Notes: generated from the sequence alone by a model not told the origin. A stretch of DNA of 25,795 bases from Phycisphaeraceae bacterium (GCA_041750925.1 JBGSYL010000238.1:1-25795); one strand, 5' to 3'; counted from the stretch's first letter, positions 1-21,841 are shown. Program-made: numbers and translations.

Positions 1-1
1 G

Positions 2-157
2 CGCTCCGCCCGCGCCTGCGGCGTCGACGACGCCATCCTCCCCACGCTCGCCGCCGAAGCCGCCGGCCAGTGGACGGCCAACTTCAACCCGCGCAAGCCT
101 AGCGCCGAGGATTTTCAAGCTCTTTACGCAGCCGCCTTGCATCCTCGCGGGAACTGA
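2..157 (+). CDS. 3' end of an iron-containing alcohol dehydrogenase family protein (partial, runs in from the left edge; not in ORF track)
   Basis: Manual translation from base 2: RSARACGVDDAILPTLAAEAAGQWTANFNPRKPSAEDFQALYAAALHPRGN*, with TGA at 155-157. The NPR...LY..A pattern matches the typical Fe-ADH C-terminus. Confidence 0.65.
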   Translation, partial: RSARACGVDDAILPTLAAEAAGQWTANFNPRKPSAEDFQALYAAALHPRGN

Positions 158-845
158 CCTTCGCCGCCGGCACACGCCGCAACCGTTGCCGATGGAATTT
201 CCACAGCCAAAGTGGAACGGTGATCGCCAGTGCGGCCGCGGCAATCCCGCCCAGAATCAGAAAATGGGTGATGGTGATTCGCGACCTTTCGCGGTCGCGC
301 GACGAGAGCCAATCGTTCTTGACCACCAGCATCATACCCGCAGGCCAGTTGAGGCCAGATTCCAGATGCACACGCACCAAGGCGGTGCTCGATTGCGGAT
401 TGTGAACCGATGCGACGCCGAGATAAGGCAGGTCTCCCTCGTCATCGTAGGACGACGCCCGCTTGGTCGGCAATCGTAAAAAGGTCTCCCCGTTGTCGTA
501 AGACACCGCGACCGTCACGCGGTTATGCAGTTCATTCCGGCTCAGACCGATCGCGCGGATTTCCTGCCCGCTGGTCATCTGCAGGTGGACCGGGTATTCG
601 CCTTTGAGCGGAGTGAGGTCCGTCATCGTTGCGACCGCGTGGCCGCCATCGGCGCTGAAGACAATGGGAACGCCTGCGACGGGCGGATCGGGCCAGAGAA
701 CCGAGCCGACAAACATTGCCGCGATCCCGATCGCCGCAGTGGCGATGGCAAATACGAAATGCTCGACTTGATCGCGTCGGTCGCTCATGGCGCCGTATAG
801 GATAATGCGGCGATCCTGCGCGGGGAGCGAAATGCCCATTTTCAC
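99..845 (-). CDS. Hypothetical membrane protein (two TM segments flanking a soluble domain); start could be 845 (GTG), 839 or 788 (ATG)
   Basis: Hydrophobic stretches FVFAIATAAIGIAAMFVGSVLW and FLILGGIAAAALAITVPLWLW, the latter followed by a basic tail. One Asp-box-like motif SYDNGETF. SD-like AGGGGG upstream on the minus strand. Confidence 0.6.
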   Translation of the reverse strand: MKMGISLPAQDRRIILYGAMSDRRDQVEHFVFAIATAAIGIAAMFVGSVLWPDPPVAGVPIVFSADGGHAVATMTDLTPLKGEYPVHLQMTSGQEIRAIGLSRNELHNRVTVAVSYDNGETFLRLPTKRASSYDDEGDLPYLGVASVHNPQSSTALVRVHLESGLNWPAGMMLVVKNDWLSSRDRERSRITITHFLILGGIAAAALAITVPLWLWKFHRQRLRRVPAAKVSSREDARRLRKELENPRR

Positions 846-941
846 GAATCCCCCTGTTTAGGCTGGATCAAGTTAGTACGCACAGGTAGAATGTACGAAG
901 CTGCGCCGCCGCGCTTGACTCCTTCAGGGACCTGGTGACAC

Positions 942-2153
942 ATGATGACGCACATCAAACTCGCTCTGGTTGCACTGCTCGCCTTGGGTGGCATGGTGGT
1001 CGCGCTGCCTGAGGTTGCCGCGCCCGCTGTGGGCAAGGTTGCTGCGAAGGTCGATGCCACAACCTGGACGCTGGCGCGCGGCGACAGTTCGCAGACCGGC
1101 AGATCCACCGCGAAGCTGGCCGACAAGCTTGCGCTCAAGTGGCGGTTCAAAACCGAGGCCCCGATCAAGGCCACGCCGATCGTCGCGGAAGGGCGGGCTT
1201 TCGTCGGCTCCAACGATGGCCTGTTCTACGCCATCGATCTGAATACCGGCGAGAAAATCTGGTCCTTCAACACCATCGAAGGCCCGCTCCATCCTGATGC
1301 CGGCAAGAACGAAAAGAAATTCACCGACCCCATCGAAGCCGGGGCCTGTTATGTCGACGGCCGTCTTTACTTTGGCGGGCATGATGGCAATGTCTACTGC
1401 CTTGATGCCAAGACCGGCAAGATGATCTGGGCCTTTGCGACGCAGGACAAGATCACCGCCGCCGCCAACCATGTGAAATCGCCCGATGGCAAGTCGACGT
1501 GGATTCTTATTGGCAGCAACGATTCGCGGATGTACTGCCTTGACGCTGCCACCGGCAAAAAAAACTGGGATTACGAGACGGGCAACATCATCAACGGGGC
1601 GCCTGCCGTGGGCAAAGGCGTCGTGATCTTCGGCGGGTGCGATGGACTGGTGCATGTCGTCGGGCTGGCCGATGGCAAGAAGGTGTCGGAGGTGGAGATC
1701 ACCGACTACATCGCGGCGACGGCTGCGGTGGATGGCGACAAGGTCTTCTTCGGGCATCACGGCAACAAGTTCATCTGTGTCGATCTCACCGAAAAGAAAA
1801 TCGCCTGGCAGTTTGGTCAGCGGGATTTTCCTTTCATGGGCTCGCCGGCTTTGACGAAGGATCACGTGCTGTTTGGCGGGCAGGACCGTCGTGTACATTT
1901 TGTGAATCGTGCGGATGGCAAGGCGAAGTGGAGTTTCCGTTCGCGCGGCCAGTTCAACAGCTCGCCGGTAATTTTCGGTGAACGTGCGATCATCGGCTGC
2001 GATGATGGCCGGGTGTACATGCTCAATCTAGCCGATGGCACGGAGGTCTGGAACTACGAAATCGGCCAGCGCGTCGCGGGCTCGCCTGCGGTGATTGATG
2101 GGATGATGCTGATTGGCAGTGATGATGGATCGTTGTATGCGTTTGGTGAATAG
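942..2153 (+). CDS. Exported PQQ-like (BamB-like) beta-propeller repeat protein
   Basis: N-terminal signal peptide. Repeated blades of the form P.V..GR.FVGS.DG..YA.D..TG...W.F ending in Trp-docking motifs. At 403 aa it is too short for a PQQ dehydrogenase. Confidence 0.9.
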   Translation: MMTHIKLALVALLALGGMVVALPEVAAPAVGKVAAKVDATTWTLARGDSSQTGRSTAKLADKLALKWRFKTEAPIKATPIVAEGRAFVGSNDGLFYAIDLNTGEKIWSFNTIEGPLHPDAGKNEKKFTDPIEAGACYVDGRLYFGGHDGNVYCLDAKTGKMIWAFATQDKITAAANHVKSPDGKSTWILIGSNDSRMYCLDAATGKKNWDYETGNIINGAPAVGKGVVIFGGCDGLVHVVGLADGKKVSEVEITDYIAATAAVDGDKVFFGHHGNKFICVDLTEKKIAWQFGQRDFPFMGSPALTKDHVLFGGQDRRVHFVNRADGKAKWSFRSRGQFNSSPVIFGERAIIGCDDGRVYMLNLADGTEVWNYEIGQRVAGSPAVIDGMMLIGSDDGSLYAFGE

Positions 2154-2159
2154 GAAGGG

Positions 2160-2262
2160 ATTGAGGCACGAAGGCACGGAGGCACGGAGGGTGGACAGTC
2201 AGCCCTCGGTTCCGTGCCTGAACCCTCCGTGCCTATGTGCCTCAATGCCGCCTTCGTGCCTC
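2160..2262. repeat. Intergenic 8-nt micro-repeat inverted-repeat element (unit AGGCACGG/A)
   Basis: Three forward units (2164-2187) and four reverse units YGTGCCT (2213, 2228, 2236, 2255). ATTGAGGCAC 2160-2169 pairs with 2237-2246, and AGGCACGGAGG 2172-2182 pairs with 2224-2234. Confidence 0.85.
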
Positions 2263-2273
2263 TTGGAGTTTTA

Positions 2274-3614
2274 ATGATGTCCACCGAAACCCTGCCCGTA
2301 TTGCCTGCGTCCGACAAGGACAAGACGACGGCAGGCAACTATTTTGTCTCCAACTATCCGCCGTTCTCGTTTTGGAAGCCCGAATATGTGAACGAAGTCG
2401 AAGCGGCCATGGATCGTGCCCCGGCGCCGGATCGCACACTGGGGATGTATGTGCACATTCCGTTTTGCCGCAAGCGTTGCCACTTCTGTTATTTCAAGGT
2501 CTACACCGATCGCAATGCCGCGGCGATCAAGCAGTATCTCGATGCGGTGCTCACCGAACTGGCTTCGTATGTGAATAGACCCTTCATCGGCGGACGCAAG
2601 CCCAAGTTTCTTTACTTCGGCGGCGGTACGCCTTCCTATCTTTCGCCCGAGCAACTTCTCTACCTGACCGATGGCATGAAGAAGCTGCTGCCCTGGGATG
2701 AGATGGAGGAGGTGGCGTTTGAAGGCGAGCCGGGCACGCTTAATGAACGCAAGCTGCAGGCGATGGTCGACTTCGGCGTGACGCGGCTGTCGTTTGGCGT
2801 CGAACATTTTGATGATGAAATTCTCAAAAGCAACAACCGCGCCCACGATTCGAAGGCGACCTACAAGGCCTATGAAACGGCCCGGGCGGTGGGATTCAAG
2901 CAGATCAATATCGATCTGATTGCGGGCATGCTCAACGAGACGCAGGAGAAATGGGAGGATGCCGTCCGCCGCACGATTGAGATGGATCCCGAGTGCGTCA
3001 CGATTTATCAGATGGAGATTCCCTACAACACGACGATTTACCAGAACATGAAGGCGAGCGGCGAGATCGTCGCCCCCGTCGCCGACTGGCACACTAAACG
3101 CGAGTGGGTCGATTACGCTTTCCGCGAACTGGAGAAGCATGGCTACACCGTAACCAGTGCCTACACAGCAGTGAAGGACCCTTCGAAGGTGAAGTTCGTT
3201 TATCGCGATGAGCTCTGGCACGGGGCGGACATGCTGAGCCTGGGCGTTTCGAGCTTTGGCATCATCGATGGCACGCACTATCAGAACGAGGCGAACATCG
3301 ACAAGTATGTGGAGCGTATCGAGAAGGGCGAGTCGCCGGTGTTCCGGGCGTTCACGATGAACGATGAGGAAAAGTTCATCCGCGAGTTCATTCTGCAACT
3401 TAAGCTGGGCTCAGTGACGCGATCGTATTTCAAGGACAAATTCGACATTGATCCTGCCGAGCGATATGCGGCGGTGCTACGCGGCTATGCGGAGGAAGGC
3501 CTGGCGACGATTGAGCCGGATGCAATCCGTCTGTCGCGCGACGGGTTGCTGCAGGTGGATCGCCTGCTGCATGGATTCTTCATGGCGAAGCATCGGACGG
3601 ATCGGATCGTGTGA
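2274..3614 (+). CDS. HemN-like (class C) radical SAM protein, probably not a true coproporphyrinogen III oxidase
   Basis: YVHIPFCRKRCHFC (CxxxCxxC), YFGGGTPS, R.SFGVE.F, INIDLIAG, plus a HemN-type C-terminal domain. The N-terminus is YFVSNYPPF rather than the HemN RYTSYP. Start moved to ATG 2274 behind GGAG at 2265-2268; the ORF-track start at 2214 lies inside the repeat element. Confidence 0.85.
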   Translation: MMSTETLPVLPASDKDKTTAGNYFVSNYPPFSFWKPEYVNEVEAAMDRAPAPDRTLGMYVHIPFCRKRCHFCYFKVYTDRNAAAIKQYLDAVLTELASYVNRPFIGGRKPKFLYFGGGTPSYLSPEQLLYLTDGMKKLLPWDEMEEVAFEGEPGTLNERKLQAMVDFGVTRLSFGVEHFDDEILKSNNRAHDSKATYKAYETARAVGFKQINIDLIAGMLNETQEKWEDAVRRTIEMDPECVTIYQMEIPYNTTIYQNMKASGEIVAPVADWHTKREWVDYAFRELEKHGYTVTSAYTAVKDPSKVKFVYRDELWHGADMLSLGVSSFGIIDGTHYQNEANIDKYVERIEKGESPVFRAFTMNDEEKFIREFILQLKLGSVTRSYFKDKFDIDPAERYAAVLRGYAEEGLATIEPDAIRLSRDGLLQVDRLLHGFFMAKHRTDRIV

Positions 3615-3652
3615 GGCTCAGCGTGTGTCGGGTACAAGGTGAATAACGATTA

Positions 3653-3784
3653 ATCACGAAGGCACGAAGTCAGGAAAAAACGAGGGAGAGGAGCGAGGCC
3701 GCAGTGAATCAAACGCCGACTAACTTCGACCTGCATTCTCACTTTCCTTTGTCTCCTCCTTCGTATCCTCGTGCCTTCTGTGGT
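3653..3784. repeat. Intergenic micro-repeat inverted-repeat element (CACGAAGG-type unit)
   Basis: Left arm ATCACGAAGGCACGAAG (3653-3669), right arm CTTCGTATCCTCGTGCCTTCTGTGGT (3759-3784). Purine-rich and pyrimidine-rich inner arms (AGGAAAAAA..GGAGAGGAG versus TTTCCTTT..CTCCTCC). Same unit family as the 2160-2262 element. Confidence 0.7.
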
Positions 3785-3900
3785 AAAACCAAACCAGCAA
3801 TCGCGGCTTGATCTCCCATGAATTCAATCGCTTCACAAACCTCAAATTCGTCAGCATCGTCACGGCGGCGAAAATCGCCTGCGCGGAAAGGGAAGGGGCA

Positions 3901-4467
3901 ATGAAGTTGTCCGCGCAGCACCAGGCCGACCTGTTTTTTCCGCTCGATGAGTTTTACTCGGCGGAAGGGCGTTCGCTGCCCGCCATTGATCAGATTGATG
4001 GTGCGCAGATGCCCCAGCCTTACCGGCAACTGCTGGTGCATCAGGGCGACATGACGCCGACGCTGGAGAAATTCCACGGCAGCCGTATATCGCTCAAGCT
4101 TTTCGACAAGCGGCTGGGCACCGATGGCTGGCTCTCGCGGCGCGTCGCTTTGACGCTGGACGAGACGGGCCGGCCTGTCGAGTTCGGGGCGATCCGCATC
4201 AACCTCAACCTGTTTTCCCCCGTGGCCCGCGACCACATTCTCGAAGGCGTCCGTCCGCTGGGCACGATCCTCAACGAGGATGGCATCGTTCACAGCAGCC
4301 GGCCTGTCGCTTTCCTGCGCGTGCAGTCGGATGAGCTGATCAACCAGACGCTGGGTCTGAAGCAGCCGCAGGTTTTGTACGGGCGGCGCAATGTGCTTTA
4401 CAACGAGAACAATGAACCGCTGGCCGAGGTGGTGGAGATCCTGCCGCCGACGGAGGGGCGGCAGTGA
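3901..4467 (+). CDS. Chorismate pyruvate-lyase (UbiC/Rv2949c/DUF98)-like fold protein
   Basis: LLVHQGDMTPTLEKFHG, RRVAL, PVEFGAIRI, PLGTIL, GRRNVL and PLAEVVEILP follow the chorismate-lyase/UTRA-fold pattern. ATG 3901 has a purine-rich RBS. Catalytic activity cannot be confirmed by eye. Confidence 0.6.
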   Translation: MKLSAQHQADLFFPLDEFYSAEGRSLPAIDQIDGAQMPQPYRQLLVHQGDMTPTLEKFHGSRISLKLFDKRLGTDGWLSRRVALTLDETGRPVEFGAIRINLNLFSPVARDHILEGVRPLGTILNEDGIVHSSRPVAFLRVQSDELINQTLGLKQPQVLYGRRNVLYNENNEPLAEVVEILPPTEGRQ

Positions 4468-4512
4468 TCCGGATTGAACGCCCAGTCACAGACGGCGCGG
4501 AGGCGCAGAGCC

Positions 4513-4764
4513 ATGCCCAATGGCGAGCCATCGAGACGAAGCATCATCACCAAACTGATCGCTTGCGTTCTGCTTGGGGCGATTGGGCTGGTGTTCTTGT
4601 CGATGGCGGCTGTTCCTATCCTCGATCCGGGAGGCGGCGCTGGCGGCCAGGAGGCTCGTGCGAAGATGACGGCCACCAAACGGGTGATCGGCGTGGTGAT
4701 TCCTGGAACGATTTCATTGTTCTTCTTTGCCACGATGGTGTCGGTGGCTCGGGCGAGAAGATAG
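4513..4764 (+). CDS. Small hypothetical two-TM membrane protein (83 aa)
   Basis: GGAGG at 4499-4503 before ATG 4513. Two hydrophobic helices (LIACVLLGAIGLVFLSMAAVPIL and VIGVVIPGTISLFFFATMV) and a basic C-terminus. Confidence 0.45.
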   Translation: MPNGEPSRRSIITKLIACVLLGAIGLVFLSMAAVPILDPGGGAGGQEARAKMTATKRVIGVVIPGTISLFFFATMVSVARARR

Positions 4765-4831
4765 GCATTGTCGCCCCCGTGAACTCCATGATGAAATTCG
4801 ACAACACACATTTTCATGGCCCGTTTTTCAC

Positions 4832-4861
4832 TTGCCGCCTACCATGCGATTGAGTTATAGT
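4832..4861 (+). promoter_or_regulatory. Candidate sigma70-type promoter TTGCCG-N18-TATAGT upstream of the halogenase-like gene
   Basis: -35 at 4832-4837 and -10 at 4856-4861 in an AT-rich gap. GAGGA RBS just before ATG 4888. Motif match only. Confidence 0.35.
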
Positions 4862-4887
4862 ACGCGTACATACTTATTGAGGAACCC

Positions 4888-6183
4888 ATGGTTGCAAACA
4901 CTCAATCCGCGCAAAACACTGGCTCCAATCAATACGACGCCATCATCGTCGGCGGCGGGCCTTCGGGCACCACCGCTGCCGCCATCCTCGCGATGAAGGG
5001 CCGCAAGGTCATCGTGTTCGAAAGGGAAAAATTCCCGCGCTACCACATCGGCGAGTCGCTGATCCCGTTCACGTACTTCACGCTCGAGCGCATCGGCATG
5101 ATCCCCAAGCTGCGGGCGTCCAACTATCCCAAGAAGTATGGGGTGCAGTTCGTGCGGCCCAATGGAAAGATGTCCACGCCGTTCTATTTCTTCCAGCACA
5201 TGGAGCACGAATGCTCGCAGACCTGGCAGGTGTGGCGGCAGGATTTTGACCACATGCTCATGCATAACGCCCGCGAGAAGGGCGCCCTGTGCATCGAGGA
5301 GGCCACCGTCAAGGAACTGATCCACAACGAAGAGGGCTTCGTCATCGGTGTGCGCGTGTCGCACAAGGGCGAGGCGCCCGTCGAATACTTCGCGCCGATC
5401 ACTGTTGATGCCTCGGGTCGCGATGCGTTTTCCATCGTGCGGCACGACTGGCGCGAGCGCGATCCTTATCTCAATAAATGCGCCCTCTGGACCTACTTCA
5501 AAGGCGCCAAGCGCGACCCAGGCATCGACGAAGGCGCGACCACAGTGGCCTATGTGCCCGAGAAGGGCTGGTTCTGGTACATCCCGCTGCCTGACGATGT
5601 GGTGAGCTGCGGCATCGTCGCCGAGCGCGAGTATCTGCAGAAGGACAGCAAGGACCTGGAGACGATCTATTGGTCGATGGTCGAGCAGAATGCGTGGATC
5701 AAGGATCACCTCTCCACCGGGAAGGTGATCGACAAGTACCGCATGGTCAACGAGTATTCGTATCGCTCGCGTCATGGCGCCAAGGATGGACTGGTGCTCA
5801 TCGGCGATGCGTTCCAGTTTCTCGATCCCGTCTTCAGCTCCGGTGTGTTCATCGCGCTCAAGAGCGGTGAACTGGCGGGCGATGCCATCGATGCAGCTCT
5901 CACGGCAGGCGATTACTCGGCGAAGATGTTCGAGGATTACTCGCGATCACTCATGCACGGCGTCGAGTCGATGCGGCAGCTTGTTTATGCCTTCTATGAT
6001 CACGAATTCAGCTTCTCGCAGGTGCTGCGCAAGCACCCGCACCTGCGGCCGGATGTCACCGACTGCCTCATCGGCGACCTCTTCCGCGACTACACGGAGC
6101 TGTTCAGCGCGGTCAAGGAGTTTGCGAAGAATGTGCCCGAGCCGATCGAGCATGGCCTGCCGCTGGTGAAGGAAGCGGTGTGA
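4888..6183 (+). CDS. FAD-dependent halogenase-like oxidoreductase (PltA/CndH/CmlS-type, non-tryptophan class)
   Basis: GGGPSG FAD motif, PRYHIGESL.P, K83 in K-x-G-x-x-F (catalytic Lys position), WFWYIP (WxWxIP) and FLDPVFSSG. Confidence 0.8.
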   Translation: MVANTQSAQNTGSNQYDAIIVGGGPSGTTAAAILAMKGRKVIVFEREKFPRYHIGESLIPFTYFTLERIGMIPKLRASNYPKKYGVQFVRPNGKMSTPFYFFQHMEHECSQTWQVWRQDFDHMLMHNAREKGALCIEEATVKELIHNEEGFVIGVRVSHKGEAPVEYFAPITVDASGRDAFSIVRHDWRERDPYLNKCALWTYFKGAKRDPGIDEGATTVAYVPEKGWFWYIPLPDDVVSCGIVAEREYLQKDSKDLETIYWSMVEQNAWIKDHLSTGKVIDKYRMVNEYSYRSRHGAKDGLVLIGDAFQFLDPVFSSGVFIALKSGELAGDAIDAALTAGDYSAKMFEDYSRSLMHGVESMRQLVYAFYDHEFSFSQVLRKHPHLRPDVTDCLIGDLFRDYTELFSAVKEFAKNVPEPIEHGLPLVKEAV

Positions 6184-6196
6184 ATCAAAGCATTGA

Positions 6197-6300
6197 AAAA
6201 TGGCCAATGGTCATTGTAAAGTGCAAAATGATGTGATTCGTGCATCGCCTCGGCTTTGGCATTTTGCAATTTACATTTTGCATTGGACATTGGCCATTTT
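6197..6300. repeat. Intergenic heptamer-periodic inverted-repeat element
   Basis: Left AATGGCC AATGGTC ATTGTAA AGTGCAA AATG; right TTTTGCA ATTTACA TTTTGCA TTGGACA TTGGCCA. Perfect 13-bp outer pairing (6197-6209 with 6288-6300) and 15/16 inner pairing (6215-6230 with 6260-6275). Confidence 0.9.
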
Positions 6301-6315
6301 CCTCCTCCTCCCCCC

Positions 6316-7623
6316 ATGAACATCGTCCAACTCACCCCCGGCACCGGCAGCTTTCACTGCGGCACCTGTCTTCGCGACCATGCGGTGGTGAAGGCGATGC
6401 GCGTGATGGGGCATTCCACGCTGATGGTGCCGCTCTATCTGCCGTTCGTGACCGATGGCGAAGGCGCGGGTGCGGATAGTGAGATTTTTTATGGCGGGGT
6501 GAATGTCTACCTGGAGCAAAAGTTTTCATTGTTTCGCCATACGCCGCGCTGGATGGATCGGTTTTTCAATTCGAAGTGGGTGCTGAAGCTGGCATCGAAG
6601 ATGGCGGGCTCGACTGATTCAAAGATGCTCGGGCCGCTGACGATTTCGATGCTCAAGGGTGAGGAAGGCAGGCAGGCCAAGGAACTGGAGAAGCTCATCG
6701 ACTGGCTCAGGACGCAGCCGAAGCCGGATGTGGTTTGTCTGTCCAACGGATTGCTCGTGGGCATGGCGCGCCGGCTCAAGGAAGTGTTTCAGGTGCCGGT
6801 GGTCTGTCTGCTGCAGGGAGAGGATGCATTTCTCAATGCGATGGGCAGGTGGACGGATGAAGCTTGGGAGACGGCGGCGCAGCGGAGCCAGGATGTTGAT
6901 GCCTTCATCGCTGTGAGCCGGTACTACGGCGACCTGATGGGCAGGCGGCTTCGCATCGCGCCCAAGCGGATGCATGTTGTTCACAACGGCATCTCGCTCG
7001 AAGGATTTTCACCGGCGGCTGCACCGGTCGAGCATCCGACCATCGGCTTCTTTGCCCGCATGATCCCCGGCAAGGGGTTGCACCTGGTTGTCGATGCCTT
7101 CATCGCGCTCAAGAAGAAGGGCGAGATTGCGAATCTGAAACTGAAAGTGGGCGGGGCCAGGACCGATGCGGATGAGAAGTATGTGAAGGAGCAGCAGGCA
7201 AAGATCGCGAAGGCGGGCTTCGCGGCGGAAACATCGTGGGTGTTCAATGTGACGTTTGAAGAGAAGGTGGAATTTCTGCGGGGCGTCACGCTGCTCTCGG
7301 TGCCGACGATTTATGGCGAGTCGTTTGGTCTGTACCTCCTCGAGAGTCTTGCGGCGGGTGTGCCGGTGGTGCAGCCGCGCAGTGGGGCGTTTCCGGAACT
7401 GGTGGAGGCGACGGGCGGTGGCGTGCTTTGCGAGCCCAATGATGCCCGGGCACTGGCCGCCGCGATGGAGCCGCTGCTGATTGATCGGGAACAGGCCGGC
7501 ATCCTGGGCGAGCGCGGCAGGCAGGCGGTGATCCGCGATTTCAACATCCAGGGCATGGCCCGGCGGGTGCTGGCTGTCTATGAATCCGCACGATTGGCAA
7601 CCCCATCGGTAATTTCGGAATAA
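6316..7623 (+). CDS. Glycosyltransferase family 4 (GT-B fold)
   Basis: HVVHNGI, IGFFARM..GKG, and the EX7E motif in ESFGLYLLESLAAGVPVV. N-terminal CGTCLRD. Start moved to ATG 6316 because the ORF-track start at 6256 lies in the repeat element. Confidence 0.9.
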   Translation: MNIVQLTPGTGSFHCGTCLRDHAVVKAMRVMGHSTLMVPLYLPFVTDGEGAGADSEIFYGGVNVYLEQKFSLFRHTPRWMDRFFNSKWVLKLASKMAGSTDSKMLGPLTISMLKGEEGRQAKELEKLIDWLRTQPKPDVVCLSNGLLVGMARRLKEVFQVPVVCLLQGEDAFLNAMGRWTDEAWETAAQRSQDVDAFIAVSRYYGDLMGRRLRIAPKRMHVVHNGISLEGFSPAAAPVEHPTIGFFARMIPGKGLHLVVDAFIALKKKGEIANLKLKVGGARTDADEKYVKEQQAKIAKAGFAAETSWVFNVTFEEKVEFLRGVTLLSVPTIYGESFGLYLLESLAAGVPVVQPRSGAFPELVEATGGGVLCEPNDARALAAAMEPLLIDREQAGILGERGRQAVIRDFNIQGMARRVLAVYESARLATPSVISE

Positions 7624-7730
7624 GAGCGGCCCGCTGCGCGTTATCATATAAGTCCGCCACCCGCCCATCGCCCATTCCGCGCTGCGGCATCCCGCATCGC
7701 CATCCGGTTGCGGATATGGAGTTCCTTCCC

Positions 7731-8588
7731 ATGCGTCTGAATACCCGTCTGAGCACCCTTGTGGCCTTGATGGTCGTCGGCGTTGCCTCTTCACTTCAGG
7801 CCGAGGACCTCTTGGAGAAGCATGTCGATCTGGTCAAGGCGTCGCTCATTGCCGATGTCGATTCCGTTTCGCCCGGTTCATCGTTCATGCTCGGTGTTCA
7901 TCTGAAGATGAAGCCGCACTGGCACACCTACTGGGTCAACCCCGGCGAGTCAGGCGAGGCGACGAAGATCAAATTCACCGGGCCGCAGGGCGTCGAGTTC
8001 GGCGCTGTGCGCTGGCCGCTGCCTACGGCGATGGAGTCCTTCGGCGCGATCACCTATGGCTATGAAGATGAGGCGCTGCTGCTGGTGCCTGTGAAGGTCG
8101 GGGCCCAGGCGAAGCTGGAGGGTGGGCTGAAGATTGATGCCCATGTCGTCTGGCTGGCGTGTCTGGACACCTGCATCGAAGGCGAGGCGACGCTGAACAT
8201 CGCGCTGCCGGTCTCCAAATCCAAGCCAGCGCCGGCCAACGGGCCGCAGTTCGCCAAATGGATCAAGCAACTACCCGCAAGCAGCCACACGGCTGTGGCG
8301 GCGATCGAACAGAAGAAGAAGGATGGTGCGCCGCTGTCAGTGGTGGAGGTGAAGTGGAACGAAGCGCCCAAGAAGGTGGAGTGGTTCCCGATCGCGACCC
8401 CTGCGGTGGCGATTGAGGACATCGTCCTCAAGCACGAGGGCGTCAAGACGGTGATTCAGTTCAAGCCCAATGTCTACCGCCCCGACCGCGTGCCCGGCGG
8501 CAAGGTGGATGGCGTGATCGTGTTCGAGGATGGCAAGGGACAGCGCGTGGGTGTGGCGATGTCGTTTGTTGTGCCCATTGAGGAGTAG
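7731..8588 (+). CDS. Exported DsbD N-terminal-domain (DsbC/pfam11412-like) protein, without the TM and thioredoxin domains
   Basis: Signal peptide, WHTYWVNPGESG, WP.P..., YGYE and WLACLDTCIEG cysteine pair. GGAG at 7718-7721 supports ATG 7731. Confidence 0.75.
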   Translation: MRLNTRLSTLVALMVVGVASSLQAEDLLEKHVDLVKASLIADVDSVSPGSSFMLGVHLKMKPHWHTYWVNPGESGEATKIKFTGPQGVEFGAVRWPLPTAMESFGAITYGYEDEALLLVPVKVGAQAKLEGGLKIDAHVVWLACLDTCIEGEATLNIALPVSKSKPAPANGPQFAKWIKQLPASSHTAVAAIEQKKKDGAPLSVVEVKWNEAPKKVEWFPIATPAVAIEDIVLKHEGVKTVIQFKPNVYRPDRVPGGKVDGVIVFEDGKGQRVGVAMSFVVPIEE

Positions 8589-8622
8589 ACTTGGGACTTG
8601 AGACTTGGGACTTGAGACTTGG
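8588..8622. repeat. Heptamer tandem repeat (GACTTGG GACTTGA)2 GACTTGG, single arm
   Basis: Five exact 7-nt units alternating G/A at the last position, starting on the last base of the upstream stop codon. Confidence 0.95.
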
Positions 8623-8702
8623 CTATAGAACGTCGAATCCCGCAACCGCGTGTGCGGTTGTTGAATGAATCTGGTTTTTTCTTTTCTCCCTGGAGGTTTC
8701 GC

Positions 8703-9248
8703 ATGAAACGTATCGCCCCCCTGTGTGCACTGCTGGTTCTGGCGACTGTCGCCGTTGCCGCCAACGTCAAGTCCGGCCTTGGCGTCGGCGAAAGCGTTCC
8801 CGCTTTCAACGTGAAGGACATCACCGGCCCCAGCGCGGGCAAGAGCCTGTGCTATCGATGCCAGTACGGCTCCAAGCCGGTGGCCTGTGTGTTCACCCGC
8901 GAGATCACCGACGAAGTGGTGGCTCTCATTCAGGAAATCGACAAGACTGTGGGTGACAACAAGAGCAAGAACATGTGCAGCTTCGTCGTGCTGATCACCG
9001 AAGACGCCGACGCCGGCGCCAAGCAGCTTGAGAAGCTGGCCAAGGAAAAGGGCATCAAGAACGTGCCGCTGACGGTGTTTGACGGCGCTTCAGGCCCCAA
9101 CGGTTACAAGATCGCCAAGGACGCCGCCGTCACCGTGCTCTACTGGAACAAGAGCCGCGTGCAGGCCAATCACGCCTTCGCCGCCGGCAAGATGACCAAG
9201 GACGATGTGAAGAAGGTCGCCGCTGATTCGAGCAAGATCCTCAACTGA
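8703..9248 (+). CDS. Exported thioredoxin-fold/redoxin-like protein with CYRC (CxxC) motif
   Basis: GGAGG at 8692-8696 before ATG 8703. Signal peptide. G..VPAF.VKD.TG opening typical of AhpC/TSA-like redoxins, then CYRC..G.KPV..VF.R. Confidence 0.7.
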   Translation: MKRIAPLCALLVLATVAVAANVKSGLGVGESVPAFNVKDITGPSAGKSLCYRCQYGSKPVACVFTREITDEVVALIQEIDKTVGDNKSKNMCSFVVLITEDADAGAKQLEKLAKEKGIKNVPLTVFDGASGPNGYKIAKDAAVTVLYWNKSRVQANHAFAAGKMTKDDVKKVAADSSKILN

Positions 9249-9281
9249 TCCTTCGCTCGCGGTCGCCATCAAAGATTCACC

Positions 9282-9311
9282 GAAACCCGCTTCCGGAAGG
9301 AGGCGGGTTTC
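9282..9311 (+). terminator. Probable intrinsic terminator hairpin
   Basis: GAAACCCGCTTCC-GGAA-GGAGGCGGGTTTC: 13-bp stem (one G.U) with a GNRA tetraloop, 33 nt after the redoxin stop. The U-tail is short. Confidence 0.6.
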
Positions 9312-9328
9312 ATTGCAGGATAGAATCA

Positions 9329-9514
9329 ATGAAAGTCCGGGAAGCCATTGAATTGATCGAAGCCGATGGGTGGCGGCACATCGACACCTCGGGTAGTCAT
9401 CGCCAATTCAAACATCCGGTGAAACCAGGCCGAGTCACTATTTCAGGCAAACTATCGAAGGACATTCCACCGGGCACGATGAACAGCATCCTGAAGCAGG
9501 CGGGATTGAAATGA
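9329..9514 (+). CDS. hicA: HicA family mRNA interferase toxin
   Basis: 61 aa; LIEADGW, GSHRQFKHP..PGRVTI, DIPPGT..SILKQAGL. The GSH catalytic His is present. Confidence 0.92.
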   Translation: MKVREAIELIEADGWRHIDTSGSHRQFKHPVKPGRVTISGKLSKDIPPGTMNSILKQAGLK

Positions 9515-9744
9515 AACCATCAAAGCAAGCCAAATATGCCGTGGTGATTGAGCGCTCGAAAGATGGCTTTGGGGCCTATGTGCCGGACTTGCCCGGCTGT
9601 GTTGCCCTGGGGGATTCGTTGGAGGAGGTCGAAAACCTGATTCGCGAGGCGATCGCCCTCCACATTGCGGGCATGCGTGATGATGGATTGGAGGTACCGC
9701 AGCCGACGACCAGAATCGAATACCTGTCGCCGCGTGTTGCTTGA
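9511..9744 (+). CDS. hicB: HicB family antitoxin, short form without C-terminal DNA-binding domain
   Basis: Y.VVIE....FGAYVPDLPGC.A.G.S.EE..NLIREAI.LH...M...G.EVP.P; ATGA overlap with hicA. Confidence 0.92.
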   Translation: MKPSKQAKYAVVIERSKDGFGAYVPDLPGCVALGDSLEEVENLIREAIALHIAGMRDDGLEVPQPTTRIEYLSPRVA

Positions 9745-11640
9745 ATGGGGCATGACCAACCTATGCATCGTAATCCACACTTGCGCTTTATCTCGTTGAT
9801 CTGCCTATTCATGGCAGGCTTTGGCTTTGCAAATGCCCCCATCCTCGCCGCCCCGCGGTCCAGCAGTCTCATGGACATCTCCGCCGATGGTTCGCTCCTG
9901 GCCTGCTCCAATCGCGACAGCGGCACCGTCACCATCATCGATCTCAAGACCAACACCAAGCTGCGCGAAATTACCGTGGGCACCACGCTATCCAAGCCTG
10001 AAGGCGTGGCGTTCCTGGGCGACACCCATCAGTTCGCTGTCACGCTATATCACGATGACAAGATCATCTTCGCCGATGCAGCCACCGGTAAGACAACCGG
10101 CGAGGTCGATGTCTTCGATGAACCCTACGGTATCGTCAGCTCACTTAAGGGCGACAAGCTTTACGCCACGCTCAGTTATCCGGGCCAGATCATCGAGATC
10201 GACACCAAGGCCCGCAAGGTCCTGCGCACCTTCGAGGCCGGCCGCTTCCCGCGCGGCATCGCCATTGCCGCCGATGATTCGCGTCTGTATTTCACCGAGT
10301 ATTACACGGCCAACATCATCGCCCTTGACACCGCCACCGGGAAGGAAGCCGACCGCTGGGATGGCATCCGCTCGGACAATCTCGCACGGCAGATCACCCT
10401 GCATCCCACCCGGCCCAAGGCTTACATCCCGCACATCCGCTCCGCCACCGAACGGGCTCATGGCGAAGGCTCGATCTTTCCCTATGTGACCATTCTCGAC
10501 ACTGATCAGCGCGAGGGAAAACGCCGCACGCGAATCCCCATGGACAGCTTCATCAGCGTCCACGTCACCGCCAATCCGTGGGAGGTGGCCATCGCCCCCG
10601 ATGGTCGCCGGCTGTATGCGGTGTTCAGCGGCACCAACGACATGTATGTCACCGATGTCATCGACGATGACTACCGCGAACTGACCCACCGGGCCACGCT
10701 CAAGCTCGGCAGCAACCCCCGGGCGGTGCGCGTTGCCAACGACAGCAGCGCTTTCTACATCTACAACGCCCTGGATTTCAACGTGGTGGTCTACGATGCG
10801 AAAACCCTGCGGCAGCGGGCGGTGATCCCGGTGACGCAATCGCCGCTCAGCGCGGAGATCCTGCTGGGTAAACAGCTCTTTTATTCAGCGTTGGAGCCGA
10901 TGGCCAGTCGGCGGTGGATATCCTGTTCAAGCTGCCATCCCGATGGCGAAAGTGATGCCCGCACCTGGCAGAACCCCGAGGGACTGCGCGACACGCCATC
11001 ACTGGCGGAAATGGCATGGACGCATCCACTGCACTGGTCGGCCGACCGCGACGAGGTGCAGGATTTTGAGCACACGATTCGAGGCAACCTCATGCAAGGC
11101 CGCGGGCTGATCCCCGGTCGTCGCAATGTGCAGCCCGATCTGGACAAACCCAACAAGGGCATCTCCGCATCGCTCGATGCTCTGGCCGCCTACAGCAACA
11201 CGCACAAGGCCCCCATGAGTCCGCACGGCAAGAACGGTTTGAGCGAAGCGGCCCAGCGCGGCCGCGAACTGTTCTTCTCCAAGCAGACCAACTGTGCTTC
11301 GTGCCACAGCGGGCCTTATTTCACTGACTCCACGCCCGGCCCGACAATCATCCGCCACGATGTAGGCACGGGCGGTGACGATCCCTCGGAGAAAATGGGC
11401 CCCGCCTACGACACGCCGACGCTTTTGGGCATCTACCGCACCGCGCCTTACCTCCACCATGGCAAAGCCGCCACGCTGGTCGATGTGCTCACGACGCAAA
11501 ACAAGGATGACAAGCACGGCAAGACGAGCCACCTTGCGGCGGAGCAGATCAACGATCTCGTCGAGTTTCTTAAGGCGCTGCCTTATGAGGATCCTGAGCC
11601 GCGGGCGCGGGAGTTGAAGATGAAGAAGGTGGAGCGGTGA
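9745..11640 (+). CDS. Exported YVTN/YncE-type beta-propeller fused to a C-terminal diheme cytochrome c (CcP/MauG-like) domain; start 9745 or 9763
   Basis: Signal peptide. Propeller repeats (P.GVAF, P.GIAI..D..RLY, PWEVAIAPDG.RLY, PRAV). Two haem motifs, CSSCH and CASCH. TPTL.GIYRTAPYLHHG resembles the CcP/MauG C-terminal motif. Confidence 0.85.
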   Translation: MGHDQPMHRNPHLRFISLICLFMAGFGFANAPILAAPRSSSLMDISADGSLLACSNRDSGTVTIIDLKTNTKLREITVGTTLSKPEGVAFLGDTHQFAVTLYHDDKIIFADAATGKTTGEVDVFDEPYGIVSSLKGDKLYATLSYPGQIIEIDTKARKVLRTFEAGRFPRGIAIAADDSRLYFTEYYTANIIALDTATGKEADRWDGIRSDNLARQITLHPTRPKAYIPHIRSATERAHGEGSIFPYVTILDTDQREGKRRTRIPMDSFISVHVTANPWEVAIAPDGRRLYAVFSGTNDMYVTDVIDDDYRELTHRATLKLGSNPRAVRVANDSSAFYIYNALDFNVVVYDAKTLRQRAVIPVTQSPLSAEILLGKQLFYSALEPMASRRWISCSSCHPDGESDARTWQNPEGLRDTPSLAEMAWTHPLHWSADRDEVQDFEHTIRGNLMQGRGLIPGRRNVQPDLDKPNKGISASLDALAAYSNTHKAPMSPHGKNGLSEAAQRGRELFFSKQTNCASCHSGPYFTDSTPGPTIIRHDVGTGGDDPSEKMGPAYDTPTLLGIYRTAPYLHHGKAATLVDVLTTQNKDDKHGKTSHLAAEQINDLVEFLKALPYEDPEPRARELKMKKVER

Positions 11641-13302: not shown

Positions 13303-16074
13303 TTGGGATGCAGTCGTTTGAGCGATCCGACGCGACTCCAATCCGAATCCCGCTTCACGATCGTTCGTGCCGATCGCCGGAGACGGTCCGACGATTTTCA
13401 TTCCAGTCGAGGCACGGGATTCATTACGGGCTCACGTTTCATCATTGCTCCGCGTTTCATCATCACTGCACGTCTGATCGTTGCATGGGCTTTGGCGGTG
13501 TCGCTACTTCTCTTCTTGTCGCCGATCGCCCGGGCCGATCTGGCGGGGTGCACCGCGAAGCTACAGTCGGGCGACTATGCAGGTTGCATCGAGGAAGCGA
13601 CGCAGGCGATTGAGAGCGGGCAGTTTGGCGAGCCGTGGCGATTGCTCAAGATTCAGGCGCAGCTGATTCGCGGGGAATATCAGGAGGCGCTGGCGACGTT
13701 TGAGATGGCGCTGCCGCGCTATCAATCGAGCATTCGGCTGCGGCTCTTGGGGCATGAGGTTTATTCGGCGCTGGGCCGGCGTGATGATGCGGCGCGGATG
13801 CTCGAGCAGATCAACCGGCTGGTGGGGGCCAGGCCGTGGTGGTATTCCGATGCGCTCGATCTGGTGGCGCAAGGCAGGGCGGCGCTGCTCCTGGGTGCTG
13901 ATCCACGGCAGGTGCTGGAGTTGATTTACGACAAGGCCCGCCGGGAATCGCCGGGCGTTCGCGAGACGTGGCTTGCGCCGGGCGAGCTGGCGCTGGACAA
14001 GCAGGATTACGCCGAGGCCGGCCGGCTGTTTACGGAGGCGGTCAAACGCTTTCCCAATGATCCGGACATTCACTACGGCATCGCGAGGGCGTTTGCCCCA
14101 TCCGATGGTCAGCGGACGATGGCGGCACTGGCGAAGACGCTGGAGCTGAATCCCAATCATGTCGGTGCGCTGCTCATGCAGGCCGATGAACTGATCGATG
14201 GCGAGAATCTGGCGGAGGCCGAGGAGGTGCTCGCGCAGGTGCTTTCGATCAACCCGGCGAGTGTGCCGGCGTGCTCTTACAGTGCGGTGCTGGCCCACTT
14301 GGAAAATGACAGCGAGGGCGAGGCGGTGAGCCGGTCGCGGGCGCTGAAGTTCAACATTGCGAACCCGGCGGTGGATCATTTGATCGGCCGTAAGCTGAGT
14401 CAAAAGTATCGCTTCGCCGAGGGCGCTGCTCATCAGCGGGCGGCGCTGAAGCTGGATGAAAATCATCTTCCGGCCAAGGCGCAGTTGTCGCAGGATCTAT
14501 TGCGACTGGGTGAAGTGGAGGAAGGGTGGAAACTGGCCCGCGAGGTTCTGGAGAAGGATGCCTACAACGTGGTGGCGTTTAATCTGGTCACGCTGCAGGA
14601 GAACATCGCGAAGTTCCGCACGCTGGAGGATGAGTTCTTCATTGTTCGCATGGAAGCCCGCGAGGCGGAGATTTATGGCGAGCGGGTGATGTCGCTGCTC
14701 AACCGGGCGAGGGTGGCGTTGTGCGACAAGTACGACATGAAACTCACGAGTCGGGTGACGGTGGAGATTTTTCCGGACCAGAAGGACTTTGCGATCCGCA
14801 CGTTCGGCCTGCCTGGCGGGGATGGATTTCTGGGCGTGTGCTTTGGCAATGTGATCACCGCGAACAGTCCGGCGGCCATCGGCGGGGCATCGAACTGGGA
14901 GGCGGTACTGTGGCATGAGTTCTGCCATGTGGTGACGCTGCAGGCGACGCGCAACCGCATGCCCCGCTGGTTGAGCGAAGGCATCAGCGTGTATGAGGAG
15001 AAGCAGGCGAACAAGACGTGGGGCCAGTCGATGACGCCGGTGTTCCGCGAGATGATTCTGGGCGGGGAGCTGACACCAGTGGGGCGGCTGAGCATGGCGT
15101 TTTTGCGGGCGCGGTCGGCGATGCATGTGCAGTTTGCGTATTACCAGTCGTCATTGGTGGTGGAGTTCATGATTCAAAAGGCGGGCATCGAGGGTGTGCG
15201 CAAGGTGCTGCGCGATCTGCATGAAGGCATCTACATCAATGCGGCCATCGAGAAACACATTGGGCCGATGAAGGAGATCGAGGCGGGGTTTGAGGCGCAT
15301 GCGAAAGCGCTGGCGCAGAAGCTGGCCCCGAGCGCGGACTGGGCCCCGCTGCCACCAGCGGCCCAGCGCGGGGGCGCTGCGCTGGCGGCTTGGCTTAAGG
15401 AGCATCCGGACAGTGTCGCGGGGCTGATGCTGCACGGGCAGGAACTGTTGGCGGAGAAAAAATGGAACGAGGCGAAGCAGCCTTTGCTCCGCGCCATCGA
15501 ACTGTTTCCCGAGGATGACAGCCCGAATAATGCGAACTGGCTATTGTCGCAGGCGCATCGGGCGCTGGAGGAAATGAAGGAGGAGCAGGCGGCCTTGGAG
15601 CGCATCGCCGCGATGAGTGCGGACCATGTGCCGGCGTTCTTGCGGCTGATGGAACTGGCGGGCGAACGGAAGGATTGGCCAGCGGTGCTCACCTTTGGCG
15701 ACCGCATTCTGGCGGTGAATCCGCTGTCGCCTTCGCCGCACCGGCTGCTGGCGATGGCGGCGGACTATATGAACGATCATGCGGCGGCGGCGCGGGCATT
15801 GCGCACGCTGCTGCTGATGGAGCCGGCGGATCCGGCGCAGTTGCATTTTGATCTGGCGCGGCATCTGTATGCGATGAAGAAGGATGACCCAGCGGCAAGG
15901 CGGCATGTACTGCGGGCCATTGAGGAAGCGCCGCGGTTTCAAGAGGCGCAGAAGTTGCTGTTGAGGATTGTGGAGGGTGACGGTCAGAAGGAAGGGGCAA
16001 GCAAACCTGAGGTGTCGCCCAAGCCCGATGGTGAGTCGTCGAACCGTCGGGGTGCTGTTGGTGATCCAAGGTGA
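13303..16074 (+). CDS. Exported TPR-repeat protein with peptidase MA-like (gluzincin) domain; start uncertain (TTG 13303 or 13318)
   Basis: Signal h-region LIVAWALAVSLLLFLSPIARA. Many TPR-like helices on both sides of LWHEFCHVV (HExxH) and PRWLSEG..VYEE (third-ligand Glu). Confidence 0.85.
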   Translation: MGCSRLSDPTRLQSESRFTIVRADRRRRSDDFHSSRGTGFITGSRFIIAPRFIITARLIVAWALAVSLLLFLSPIARADLAGCTAKLQSGDYAGCIEEATQAIESGQFGEPWRLLKIQAQLIRGEYQEALATFEMALPRYQSSIRLRLLGHEVYSALGRRDDAARMLEQINRLVGARPWWYSDALDLVAQGRAALLLGADPRQVLELIYDKARRESPGVRETWLAPGELALDKQDYAEAGRLFTEAVKRFPNDPDIHYGIARAFAPSDGQRTMAALAKTLELNPNHVGALLMQADELIDGENLAEAEEVLAQVLSINPASVPACSYSAVLAHLENDSEGEAVSRSRALKFNIANPAVDHLIGRKLSQKYRFAEGAAHQRAALKLDENHLPAKAQLSQDLLRLGEVEEGWKLAREVLEKDAYNVVAFNLVTLQENIAKFRTLEDEFFIVRMEAREAEIYGERVMSLLNRARVALCDKYDMKLTSRVTVEIFPDQKDFAIRTFGLPGGDGFLGVCFGNVITANSPAAIGGASNWEAVLWHEFCHVVTLQATRNRMPRWLSEGISVYEEKQANKTWGQSMTPVFREMILGGELTPVGRLSMAFLRARSAMHVQFAYYQSSLVVEFMIQKAGIEGVRKVLRDLHEGIYINAAIEKHIGPMKEIEAGFEAHAKALAQKLAPSADWAPLPPAAQRGGAALAAWLKEHPDSVAGLMLHGQELLAEKKWNEAKQPLLRAIELFPEDDSPNNANWLLSQAHRALEEMKEEQAALERIAAMSADHVPAFLRLMELAGERKDWPAVLTFGDRILAVNPLSPSPHRLLAMAADYMNDHAAAARALRTLLLMEPADPAQLHFDLARHLYAMKKDDPAARRHVLRAIEEAPRFQEAQKLLLRIVEGDGQKEGASKPEVSPKPDGESSNRRGAVGDPR

Positions 16075-16113
16075 ATCGATACCCCGACGGCTCGCAGACT
16101 CGCCATCGGGCTT
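16021..16113. repeat. REP-like palindrome doublet (two inverted 33-nt arms, each internally palindromic) straddling the TPR gene stop
   Basis: 16021-16053 versus 16081-16113: 29 WC + 1 G.U + 3 mismatches, 27-nt spacer. Each arm has the form CCCGAYGG-N12-CCRTCGGG. Confidence 0.8.
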
Positions 16114-16186
16114 GGGAAGGGATTCAAGGTTGTTCGAGAATCAAGGGCTGGAAAAACCAACGACTCGAAGATCAAGGACGTGACCC

Positions 16187-17026
16187 ATGCTCCGACTCTC
16201 CAGGAAATCGCTCCTTCTGCTCACCATGCTCATCGCCGCGACGGCGGTCACGACCATCTCTCTCGCCCAGCGCGGCACTCGCCCCATTGATGAGGAGACG
16301 CTTCTGCGAGCCGGACTCTCCGATTGGAAGAACGATCCGAGGTTTGAGAACGATGTCTTCACCTTCGTCCGCGTCATTTACTCCAACTGGGGCGGCCGGC
16401 GGCGCGGTGGAAGCTGGGCGGTTGACTTTCCCGATTCCGATCTCAACTTTTCCTTCCGCCTGCAGCAACTCACTTCGCTCAAGGTCAATCCGCGGCCGGT
16501 GCAACTGGAACTAACCGATGAGCGGCTGTTCGATTACCCCTGGATCTACATGGTGGAGCCGGGCGGGCTGTCGTTCGATGAGGCTGAGGTGAAGGCCCTG
16601 CGGAGGTACCTGCTCAACGGCGGCTTCATGATGGTGGATGACTTTTGGGGCGGTGATGAGTACGACAATTTCCACCGTGAGATCAAGCGGGTGTTCCCCG
16701 ATCGCGAGGTGGTCGAACTGCCCATCGAGCATCCGATTTTTCACTGTGTGTACGACTTGAAAGAGAAGCCGCAGGTCCCCTCGATCGGCCACGGCATGCG
16801 CGGCGAACGGTACGAATGGCGGCCCGGTCCCGACGATGGCAGTCAGGTCCACTACCGCGCCATCTTCGATGACAAGGGCCGCATGATGGTCATCATCTGC
16901 CACAACACCGACCTGGGCGACGGCTGGGAACGCGAAGGTGAGAACCACTACTACTTCAAGGAATTCTCAGAGAAACAGGCCTATCCGATGGGGATCAATA
17001 TCGTGTTCTACGCAATGACACACTGA
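16187..17026 (+). CDS. DUF4159 domain protein (exported)
   Basis: Signal peptide; F.FVRV.Y, W..DFPDSDLN, YPWIYM.EPG, LR.YL.NGGF...DDFWG, HPIFH, GRMMV...HNTDLGDGWE, G.NIV.YAMTH. AGGA RBS. Confidence 0.85.
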   Translation: MLRLSRKSLLLLTMLIAATAVTTISLAQRGTRPIDEETLLRAGLSDWKNDPRFENDVFTFVRVIYSNWGGRRRGGSWAVDFPDSDLNFSFRLQQLTSLKVNPRPVQLELTDERLFDYPWIYMVEPGGLSFDEAEVKALRRYLLNGGFMMVDDFWGGDEYDNFHREIKRVFPDREVVELPIEHPIFHCVYDLKEKPQVPSIGHGMRGERYEWRPGPDDGSQVHYRAIFDDKGRMMVIICHNTDLGDGWEREGENHYYFKEFSEKQAYPMGINIVFYAMTH

Positions 17027-17032
17027 GGGTGT

Positions 17033-17273: not shown

Positions 17274-17291
17274 ATCAACGGAGTGCTCGAC

Positions 17292-18296
<1,005 letters not shown>

Positions 18297-18301
18297 GAAA
18301 G

Positions 18302-18450: not shown

Positions 18451-18460
18451 CGACCTTCCC

Positions 18461-21795: not shown

Positions 21796-21800
21796 TCCAT

Positions 21801-21841
21801 TGACCTGACTGACTTGACTTGACCTGACTCATCGACTTGAC
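21801..21841. repeat. Intergenic TGAC(C/T) pentamer-type micro-repeat
   Basis: Seven TGAC copies at 21801, 21806, 21810, 21815, 21820, 21825 and 21838. Confidence 0.75.

Follow-up and report, generated by a model that had tools for sequence, protein, structure and literature searches.

In the bmp and ambigol (Fischerella) pathways, a chorismate lyase supplies 4-hydroxybenzoate, which is then halogenated by flavin enzymes. In the ambigol pathway, the acid is activated as a thioester first and released later. The bmp pathway (Bmp6/Bmp5 and Bmp7; bromophenols in marine Pseudoalteromonas) is cited in a study of Planctomycetales strain 10988, where a locus named BaaA/BaaB was proposed for the synthesis of 3,5-dibromo-p-anisic acid and never validated genetically (bioRxiv 10.1101/723874). 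This proposal is the nearest relative found in the literature for the operon considered here, of which no published description was found. The operon occupies positions 2–7623 of a contig of 25 795 nt from a Phycisphaeraceae bacterium (GCA_041750925.1 JBGSYL010000238.1:1-25795), analysed at full length and called the window below. The pathway is undescribed, its enzymes are of known families, and the segment is real, intact and strongly conserved. On balance, it can be read as the middle of a modular system of ∼15 genes, in which a chorismate-derived, probably halogenated aromatic would be joined to an exported glycoconjugate, as an add-on to an older envelope backbone.

The likeness to BaaA/BaaB is by description. 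In that planctomycete, a chorismate-lyase-like gene adjoins the most halogenase-like flavoprotein of the genome, in a locus without polyketide synthase (PKS) or non-ribosomal peptide synthetase (NRPS) that is antiSMASH-negative. BaaB, however, is described as ∼44% similar to Bmp5, a single-component brominase, whereas the window enzyme resembles two-component halogenases of the carrier type, Bmp2 included. The BaaA/BaaB paper mentions no radical S-adenosylmethionine (SAM) enzyme, family 4 glycosyltransferase (GT4), propeller, reduction module or exporter, all of which belong to the window system. Like the bmp and ambigol pathways, the latter pairs a gene of the chorismate lyase type with a flavin halogenase. 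It has neither a P450 coupling enzyme nor a carrier protein; additions relative to both are the class C radical SAM enzyme, the acid-reduction module, the GT4 and the LolD/FtsX exporter; and its distribution is order-wide and largely vertical instead of sporadic.

The window is an entire contig of a 4.4-Mb assembly (806 contigs, 75% complete), and its nearest relatives carry the label Phycisphaeraceae. Within 1–7623, annotated with Pfam and NCBIfam, six gene types are found, all on the + strand (Table 1). Five are intact and the iron-containing alcohol dehydrogenase (Fe-ADH) is a fragment; the six co-oriented enzyme-like genes of an earlier, preliminary description made from the sequence are thus present as types, but Fe-ADH is represented by its last 50 codons only (2–154). 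The fragment is 76% identical in tblastn to residues 344–392 of the Fe-ADH of a related locus (L004). Residues 1–342 are encoded at one end of contig C678 from the genome of the window (5279–6304; Pfam Fe-ADH and ADH_Fe_C), where they are preceded by genes for a 369-residue adenylase-like protein, for an SSF symporter and for a second propeller of the pyrroloquinoline quinone (PQQ) type. As the window is a whole contig and the rest of Fe-ADH is on C678, the cluster extends leftward, in agreement with what had been anticipated. Also as described earlier, scaffold genes are missing: no PKS, NRPS, acyl carrier protein or phosphopantetheine-binding motif occurs in the window or in the full arrays described below, and a scan of the window, the contigs of its genome and the full arrays for the serine motif of phosphopantetheine binding gave no plausible small open reading frame (ORF). 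For want of a scaffold enzyme, finders of biosynthetic gene clusters miss the system.

Conservation of gene order was counted among 84 related loci, each count being restricted to those with enough flanking sequence. In 63 of 70 loci, the gene directly upstream of the lyase gene is that of the radical SAM enzyme, which lies somewhere in the flank in all but one (69 of 70). The propeller gene lies upstream of the radical SAM and lyase genes in 56 of 59 eligible loci, the halogenase gene directly downstream of the lyase gene in 52 of 67, and the GT4 gene downstream of the halogenase gene in 33 of 62. The order propeller–radical SAM–lyase–halogenase is nearly invariant in two phyla, Planctomycetota and Verrucomicrobiota. 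Chance is excluded, as dozens of genomes of both phyla share this order.

De novo clustering of neighbouring genes enlarges the system. It adds a hotdog thioesterase (27 loci), a small EamA-like membrane protein (14 loci), a PaaK-like coenzyme A (CoA) ligase (14 loci), a LolD-like ATPase (15 loci) and a duplicated FtsX permease. A co-oriented array of 15 genes exists in two genomes, the complete genome of Planctomycetales bacterium ZRK34 (CP050848; locus L074) and a genome from the order of the window genome (L097). Its order is propeller, SSF symporter, EhpF-like adenylase, aldehyde dehydrogenase, Fe-ADH, propeller, radical SAM, lyase, halogenase, GT4, thioesterase, EamA-like, PaaK-like, LolD and FtsX. 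At several junctions of the ZRK34 array, the stop codon of one gene overlaps the start codon of the next. All 15 genes are found in the genome of the window, dispersed over several contigs, with 42–64% identity to the ZRK34 set. The six-gene scope of the preliminary description is therefore too narrow, since the genome encodes, at other places, the modules that complete the system (CoA ligase/thioesterase, acid reduction and exporter).

Distribution among genomes tells the same story at a larger scale. Among 301 evenly sampled Planctomycetota, 43 genomes have the lyase, 57 the radical SAM enzyme, 85 the GT4 and 98 the propeller, and these sets are nested: all 43 lyase-positive genomes have the radical SAM enzyme, and the 57 genomes with the latter have the propeller without exception and the GT4 in 55 cases. 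Families are all-or-none (e.g. 15/15 versus 0/10). In the order of a Limisphaerales-labelled genome, the radical SAM gene occurs in 85 of 121 genomes, as compared with 4 of 251 in an even sample of the whole phylum. Genomes with dispersed cluster genes retain the full set, as in the complete genomes of family f8, where lyase, radical SAM, Fe-ADH–propeller and GT4 genes are at four separate places. Collectively, synteny across two phyla and nesting within Planctomycetota argue strongly for a pathway in the sense of the preliminary description, which had looked to conserved co-occurrence of four or more genes.

A second layer emerges from genomes that lack the aromatic genes. Those negative for the radical SAM enzyme and the lyase often hold a minimal propeller–GT4–LolD–FtsX array, in which the GT4 has the same N-terminal motif. 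Among five such genomes inspected, the minimal array is complete in three, and propeller–LolD–FtsX is found in a fourth. Judged by coordinates, many more propeller/GT4 pairs are directly adjacent in the surveyed Planctomycetota, and the GT4 orthogroup directly follows the propeller in genomes devoid of radical SAM, lyase and halogenase. In the window, the radical SAM, lyase and halogenase genes stand exactly between propeller and GT4; in the full arrays, the thioesterase–EamA–ligase block stands between GT4 and LolD. From these backbone-only genomes and insert positions, the aromatic genes look inserted into an older envelope-export backbone; because the backbone also exists alone, they are read as an add-on to it and not as a free-standing antibiotic cluster. 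Propeller and GT4, previously counted as parts of the cluster, are indeed syntenic with it, but they are not dedicated tailoring functions and belong to the wider backbone.

This independence of the backbone also feeds a different explanation, in which propeller, GT4 and exporter form an envelope-biogenesis system unrelated to radical SAM, lyase and halogenase, the latter being a separate small pathway housed in the same operon. The backbone stands alone in many genomes, the f8 genomes scatter the relevant genes over four places, and the nearest solved relatives of the propeller are BamB proteins. Against such a coincidence, both phyla show one and the same arrangement, with aromatic genes placed between propeller and GT4 as well as between GT4 and LolD, and stop and start codons overlap in ZRK34; the nesting of radical SAM-positive genomes within the propeller-positive set is complete, and nearly so for GT4; and no genome was seen to carry the aromatic module in the absence of the backbone. 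Two unrelated systems are rather unlikely. A single composite system is preferred, and its enzymes can be considered in turn.

The chorismate-lyase-fold protein is assigned by structure. Its AlphaFold2 model (mean predicted local distance difference test score, pLDDT, 92.9) has the chorismate-lyase/UTRA fold, with Foldseek matches to Ycf21 (1.2e-9), the DUF98 protein AF1396 (5.6e-8), Rv2949c (4e-7) and UbiC (1jd3, 9e-5), and also to MJ0807. In a profile search of PDB sequences, AF1396 is the sole match (E = 0.012). The product-binding residues of UbiC are M34, R76, L114 and E155 (PMC7879144). A weak but collinear hhalign alignment with Escherichia coli UbiC (E = 0.017) places the invariant M51, R80 and L120 of the family on M34, R76 and L114. 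The protein stands alone, without a helix-turn-helix domain, and its best fold matches are lyase, DUF98 and Ycf21 proteins, proven lyases among them, and not regulator domains. This, together with the apparent retention of three of the four product-binding positions of UbiC, speaks against the concern raised earlier that it might be an inactive ligand-binding UTRA domain. The family is widespread, with at least 956 homologs in metagenomes, where the Joint Genome Institute (JGI) name is chorismate-pyruvate lyase, and at least 570 matched stretches in a collection of one genome per species. In one complete planctomycetal genome (G048), the lyase gene stands alone among unrelated neighbours. A complex prediction for radical SAM enzyme and lyase gave a score of 0.00, which weighs neither way on binding.

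The flavoenzyme matches Trp_halogenase in Pfam (1.4e-27) and the CmlS model in NCBIfam (4.4e-59). Its best PDB matches are all halogenases, 8zop (4.9e-61) coming first, followed by ChlB4, Mpy16, PltA, CndH, CmlS and Bmp2. Four sequence motifs are conserved in 60 of 60 orthologs. The invariant residues are, for GxGxxG (GGGPSG, residues 22–27), the first, third and last Gly; for WxWxIP (WFWYIP, residues 228–233), both W, I and P; and for GDAxxFLDPxFSSG, DP and FSSG. Equally invariant is K83, which aligns with the Lys of the KYG motif in 8zop and ChlB4, and whose equivalent we take to be the catalytic Lys that follows the first β-α-β unit. These motifs speak against a mere flavin reductase, an alternative that the preliminary description had left standing. 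When the halogenase gene is not adjacent at the locus, it tends to be elsewhere: four of five such genomes have an ortholog at another place, with 51–58% identity.

The radical SAM enzyme belongs to the HemN-like class C group. Pfam gives Radical_SAM at 9.6e-23 and HemN_C at 20.5 bits, under the cut-off. Its PDB matches include HemN (1OLT, 2.6e-37) and the methyltransferase NocN (9e-20). The cluster motif CxxxCxxC (CRKRCHFC) and the second SAM motif GGGTP (GGGTPS) are invariant in 71 orthologs, and mean column identity reaches 74% across 25 orthologs. Fold family and both motifs are shared with HemN (CgdH of E. coli, 1OLT) and with the class C methyltransferases NocN/NosN, TbtI, MenK/MqnK and ChuW. 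Unlike HemN, HemW and ChuW, however, the window enzyme scores below the curated NCBIfam cut-offs (192 versus 325, 184 versus 205 and 199 versus 400, respectively) and carries an N-terminal motif of its own family, GNYFVSNYPPFSFW. A true HemN of haem synthesis was considered and rejected: the score is below cut-off, no tetrapyrrole genes occur among the annotated neighbours in the window and related loci, and another contig of the genome (C244) carries a second HemN-like gene. Two genomes of the order of G306 (G562 and G644) contain, besides the main ortholog, two extra tandem paralogs of the radical SAM gene (E ∼1e-150).

Class C radical SAM methylation of quinone rings is established for MenK and MqnK. 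Together with a lyase fold shared with UbiC and Ycf21, which open ubiquinone and plastoquinone synthesis, this suggests another product, a new membrane quinone or soluble redox cofactor derived from 4-hydroxybenzoate. The lyase would then act as UbiC, the flavoenzyme as a ring hydroxylase and the radical SAM enzyme as an oxygen-independent C-methylase like MenK/MqnK, with the exporter and periplasmic PQQ-like propellers delivering and using the cofactor. Order-wide, all-or-none distribution by family, unusually high sequence conservation and the two exported PQQ-repeat propellers that are always near the operon would all be in keeping with such a role. The gene content is not: none of the 15 assigned array genes encodes a UbiA-type prenyltransferase or a UbiD/UbiX decarboxylase, and quinone synthesis has no role for the GT4, CoA ligase, thioesterase and acid-reduction genes. 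In addition, the flavoenzyme has the WxWxIP plus Lys signature of halogenases, which blocks mono-oxygenation in known enzymes, and the propeller has the size of BamB (403 residues), with no PQQ dehydrogenase among its 50 best Foldseek matches. A quinone or cofactor pathway is accordingly judged quite unlikely, and halogenation of a chorismate-derived ring is retained as the preferred chemistry.

The remaining genes of the array concern activation, release and reduction of an acid. The CoA ligase is PaaK/FlxY-like. The 369-residue adenylase on C678 matches EhpF (1e-45) and also LuxE-like clusters. EhpF-type acid reduction is known in connection with griseoluteic acid. In the full arrays, the adenylase precedes a protein of the aldehyde dehydrogenase family and Fe-ADH; by analogy with EhpF (Pantoea agglomerans, 3l2k/3hgu) and with LuxE/LuxC acid reduction, the trio fits reduction of an aromatic carboxylate to the alcohol. 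In contrast to the EhpF system, phenazine genes are lacking, and adenylase and aldehyde dehydrogenase lie outside the window. Some genes of the full array have a catabolic flavour, namely those for an SSF symporter, a PaaK-like ligase and a thioesterase of the 4HBT family; moreover, arrays without lyase exist. One could imagine that aromatic, possibly halogenated, acids are imported by the symporter, activated with CoA, processed and then hydrolysed by the thioesterase for degradation or detoxification, as in dehalogenation of 4-chlorobenzoate. This is very improbable: arrays contain no dehalogenase of the crotonase type and no gene for ring cleavage or β-oxidation, chorismate lyase is an anabolic enzyme, the nearest relatives of the flavoenzyme are biosynthetic halogenases, and a GT4 with an exporter does not suit catabolism.

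The backbone proteins point to the envelope. The propeller (PQQ_2, 3.7e-52) has a signal peptide and no lipobox Cys in its N-terminus; its AlphaFold2 model (pLDDT 91.7) finds BamB, YxaL and tetrathionate hydrolase as best natural Foldseek matches. It shares the eight-bladed fold of E. coli BamB but, besides lacking the lipobox Cys, scores below the cut-off of the BamB model (TIGR03300, 156 versus 285). The GT4 exceeds the Pfam cut-offs for Glycos_transf_1 (2.8e-25, 89.3 bits) and Glyco_transf_4 (2.1e-11, 44.6 bits), and its N-terminus displays an unusual invariant C-x2-C-LRD motif. In one locus (L105, 6921–9389, genome G294), propeller and GT4 read as a single ORF of 823 residues uninterrupted by a stop, which reflects a sequencing error or a genuine fusion. 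As to the exporter, the ATPase is LolD/DevA-like and the permease of the duplicated FtsX/MacB type, paired with the GT4. This recalls the DevBCA/MacB-type exporters of glycolipids and lipoproteins, with the difference that no membrane-fusion protein or LolA-like gene is seen in the arrays.

From these family assignments, we infer a possible route. The lyase would convert chorismate into an acid of the 4-hydroxybenzoate type, and the PaaK-like ligase, encoded elsewhere in the genome, would turn it into the aryl-CoA. The carrier-type flavin halogenase may then chlorinate or brominate the ring ortho to the hydroxyl, the pantetheine arm of CoA probably replacing the missing carrier protein. The class C radical SAM enzyme would place a one-carbon unit on an sp2 ring carbon, after which the hotdog thioesterase would free the acid. 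The EhpF/LuxE-like adenylase, the reductase of the aldehyde dehydrogenase family and Fe-ADH could take the carboxylate to the alcohol, and the GT4 could link the aromatic unit to a sugar or sugar conjugate. Finally, the ABC exporter made of LolD and duplicated FtsX would mediate passage across the inner membrane, with the exported propeller as a putative periplasmic partner. An uncharacterized pathway for a modified aromatic without scaffold enzyme, as first suggested, thus remains the best reading. The families fit the methylated, halogenated and glycosylated aromatic then envisaged, but that one compound receives all these modifications is deduced from family membership.

Several observations weigh against this scheme. 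Both the sequence of reactions and the function given to the propeller are guesswork. The window lyase has no match in Pfam or NCBIfam, PF04345 and PF01947 included, and PF04345 is touched by only one of 31 family members (E = 0.02); the hhalign alignment ends short of UbiC E155, for which E176 and E179 are both possible equivalents. In the planctomycetal sample, 14 of the 57 radical SAM-positive genomes have no lyase match at 1e-20. Array variants exist without lyase (adenylase–reductase–Fe-ADH–radical SAM–halogenase) or without both lyase and halogenase, which makes the radical SAM gene the most constant one of the aromatic module and suggests that chorismate may not be the sole source of substrate; the SSF symporter could import a substrate. 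In one full array (L057), a halogenase gene is absent. The arrays contain neither a flavin reductase nor a carrier protein or acyltransferase. Last, the high conservation of the radical SAM enzyme (74%) and its order-wide presence (85/121) fit core physiology better than a typical natural product.

Table 1. Features of the operon in the window
Feature	Position	Strand	Basis
Fe-ADH, C-terminal end (50 codons and stop)	2–154	+	tblastn; stop at 152–154
Exported 8-bladed propeller of BamB/YxaL type, 403 residues	942–2153	+	Pfam PQQ_2; signal peptide
HemN-like class C radical SAM enzyme, 446 residues from M21	2274–3614 (ORF opens at 2214)	+	Radical_SAM and weak HemN_C
Chorismate-lyase-fold protein, 188 residues	3901–4467 (ORF opens at 3808)	+	Predicted structure; Foldseek
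FADH2-dependent halogenase-type flavoenzyme of the PltA/CmlS/ChlB4 'variant B' type, 431 residues	4888–6183	+	Trp_halogenase; CmlS-like
GT4 glycosyltransferase, 435 residues from M21	6316–7623 (ORF opens at 6256)	+	Glycos_transf_1 and Glyco_transf_4

Other features of the window concern gaps and flanks. In the unusually long gap between Fe-ADH and propeller (154 to 942), a reverse ORF of 248 residues with a hydrophobic stretch (99–845, – strand) matches nothing in Pfam or NCBIfam and has a counterpart in none of the 84 related loci. The 420-bp gap between lyase and halogenase contains an ORF of 96 residues with two transmembrane-like segments (4474–4764, + strand); no counterpart exists in the 84 loci, closest relatives included, and it is probably not a gene. 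Because they have no counterparts, both ORFs are left out of the cluster. Short tandem repeats (units of 7–14 nt, 2–5 copies) occur at or near junctions of cluster genes (2163–2190, 3745–3770, 6256–6291 and 8587–8622). A search of 1–9800 against Rfam gave no match, and promoter-like (2 found, 3.1 expected) and terminator-like elements (8 found, 8.4 expected) are not above the expectation from shuffled sequence. Downstream of the GT4 gene, a DsbD_N-domain protein (7716–8588) and an exported protein of 209 residues (8619–9248) occupy the place (7716–9248) of the thioesterase–ligase–exporter block of other genomes, and neither gene is conserved with the cluster. Further on, 13303–25795 encodes a TPR/peptidase-MA protein, DUF4159, MoxR, DUF58 and BatA-vWA proteins and a very long open-ended ORF; this is a MoxR-vWA array typical of the Planctomycetota–Verrucomicrobiota–Chlamydiota (PVC) group and is unrelated to the operon.

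Flavin halogenases and class C radical SAM enzymes usually occur in sporadic natural-product clusters. Here they reside in an operon that is almost universal in one large verrucomicrobial order (85 of 121 sampled genomes) and all-or-none in planctomycetal families, and this operon is also wired into a backbone of glycosyltransferase plus exporter. In a bolder version, unlikely as it stands, the halogenated, C1-modified aromatic would be no secreted antibiotic; it would belong to the PVC envelope as a built-in component, or serve the two PQQ-type propellers as a periplasmic redox mediator, attached by the GT4 to the glycoconjugate that the backbone exports. If so, enzymatic halogenation and class C radical SAM chemistry would be inherited vertically within the core physiology of entire verrucomicrobial orders and planctomycetal families. 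In any case, identification of the product would assign a function to a large orphan branch of HemN-like enzymes and would provide a natural case of a carrier-type halogenase operating without carrier protein. It may also point to an origin of natural organohalogens in soils and freshwaters, habitats in which the host bacteria are abundant.

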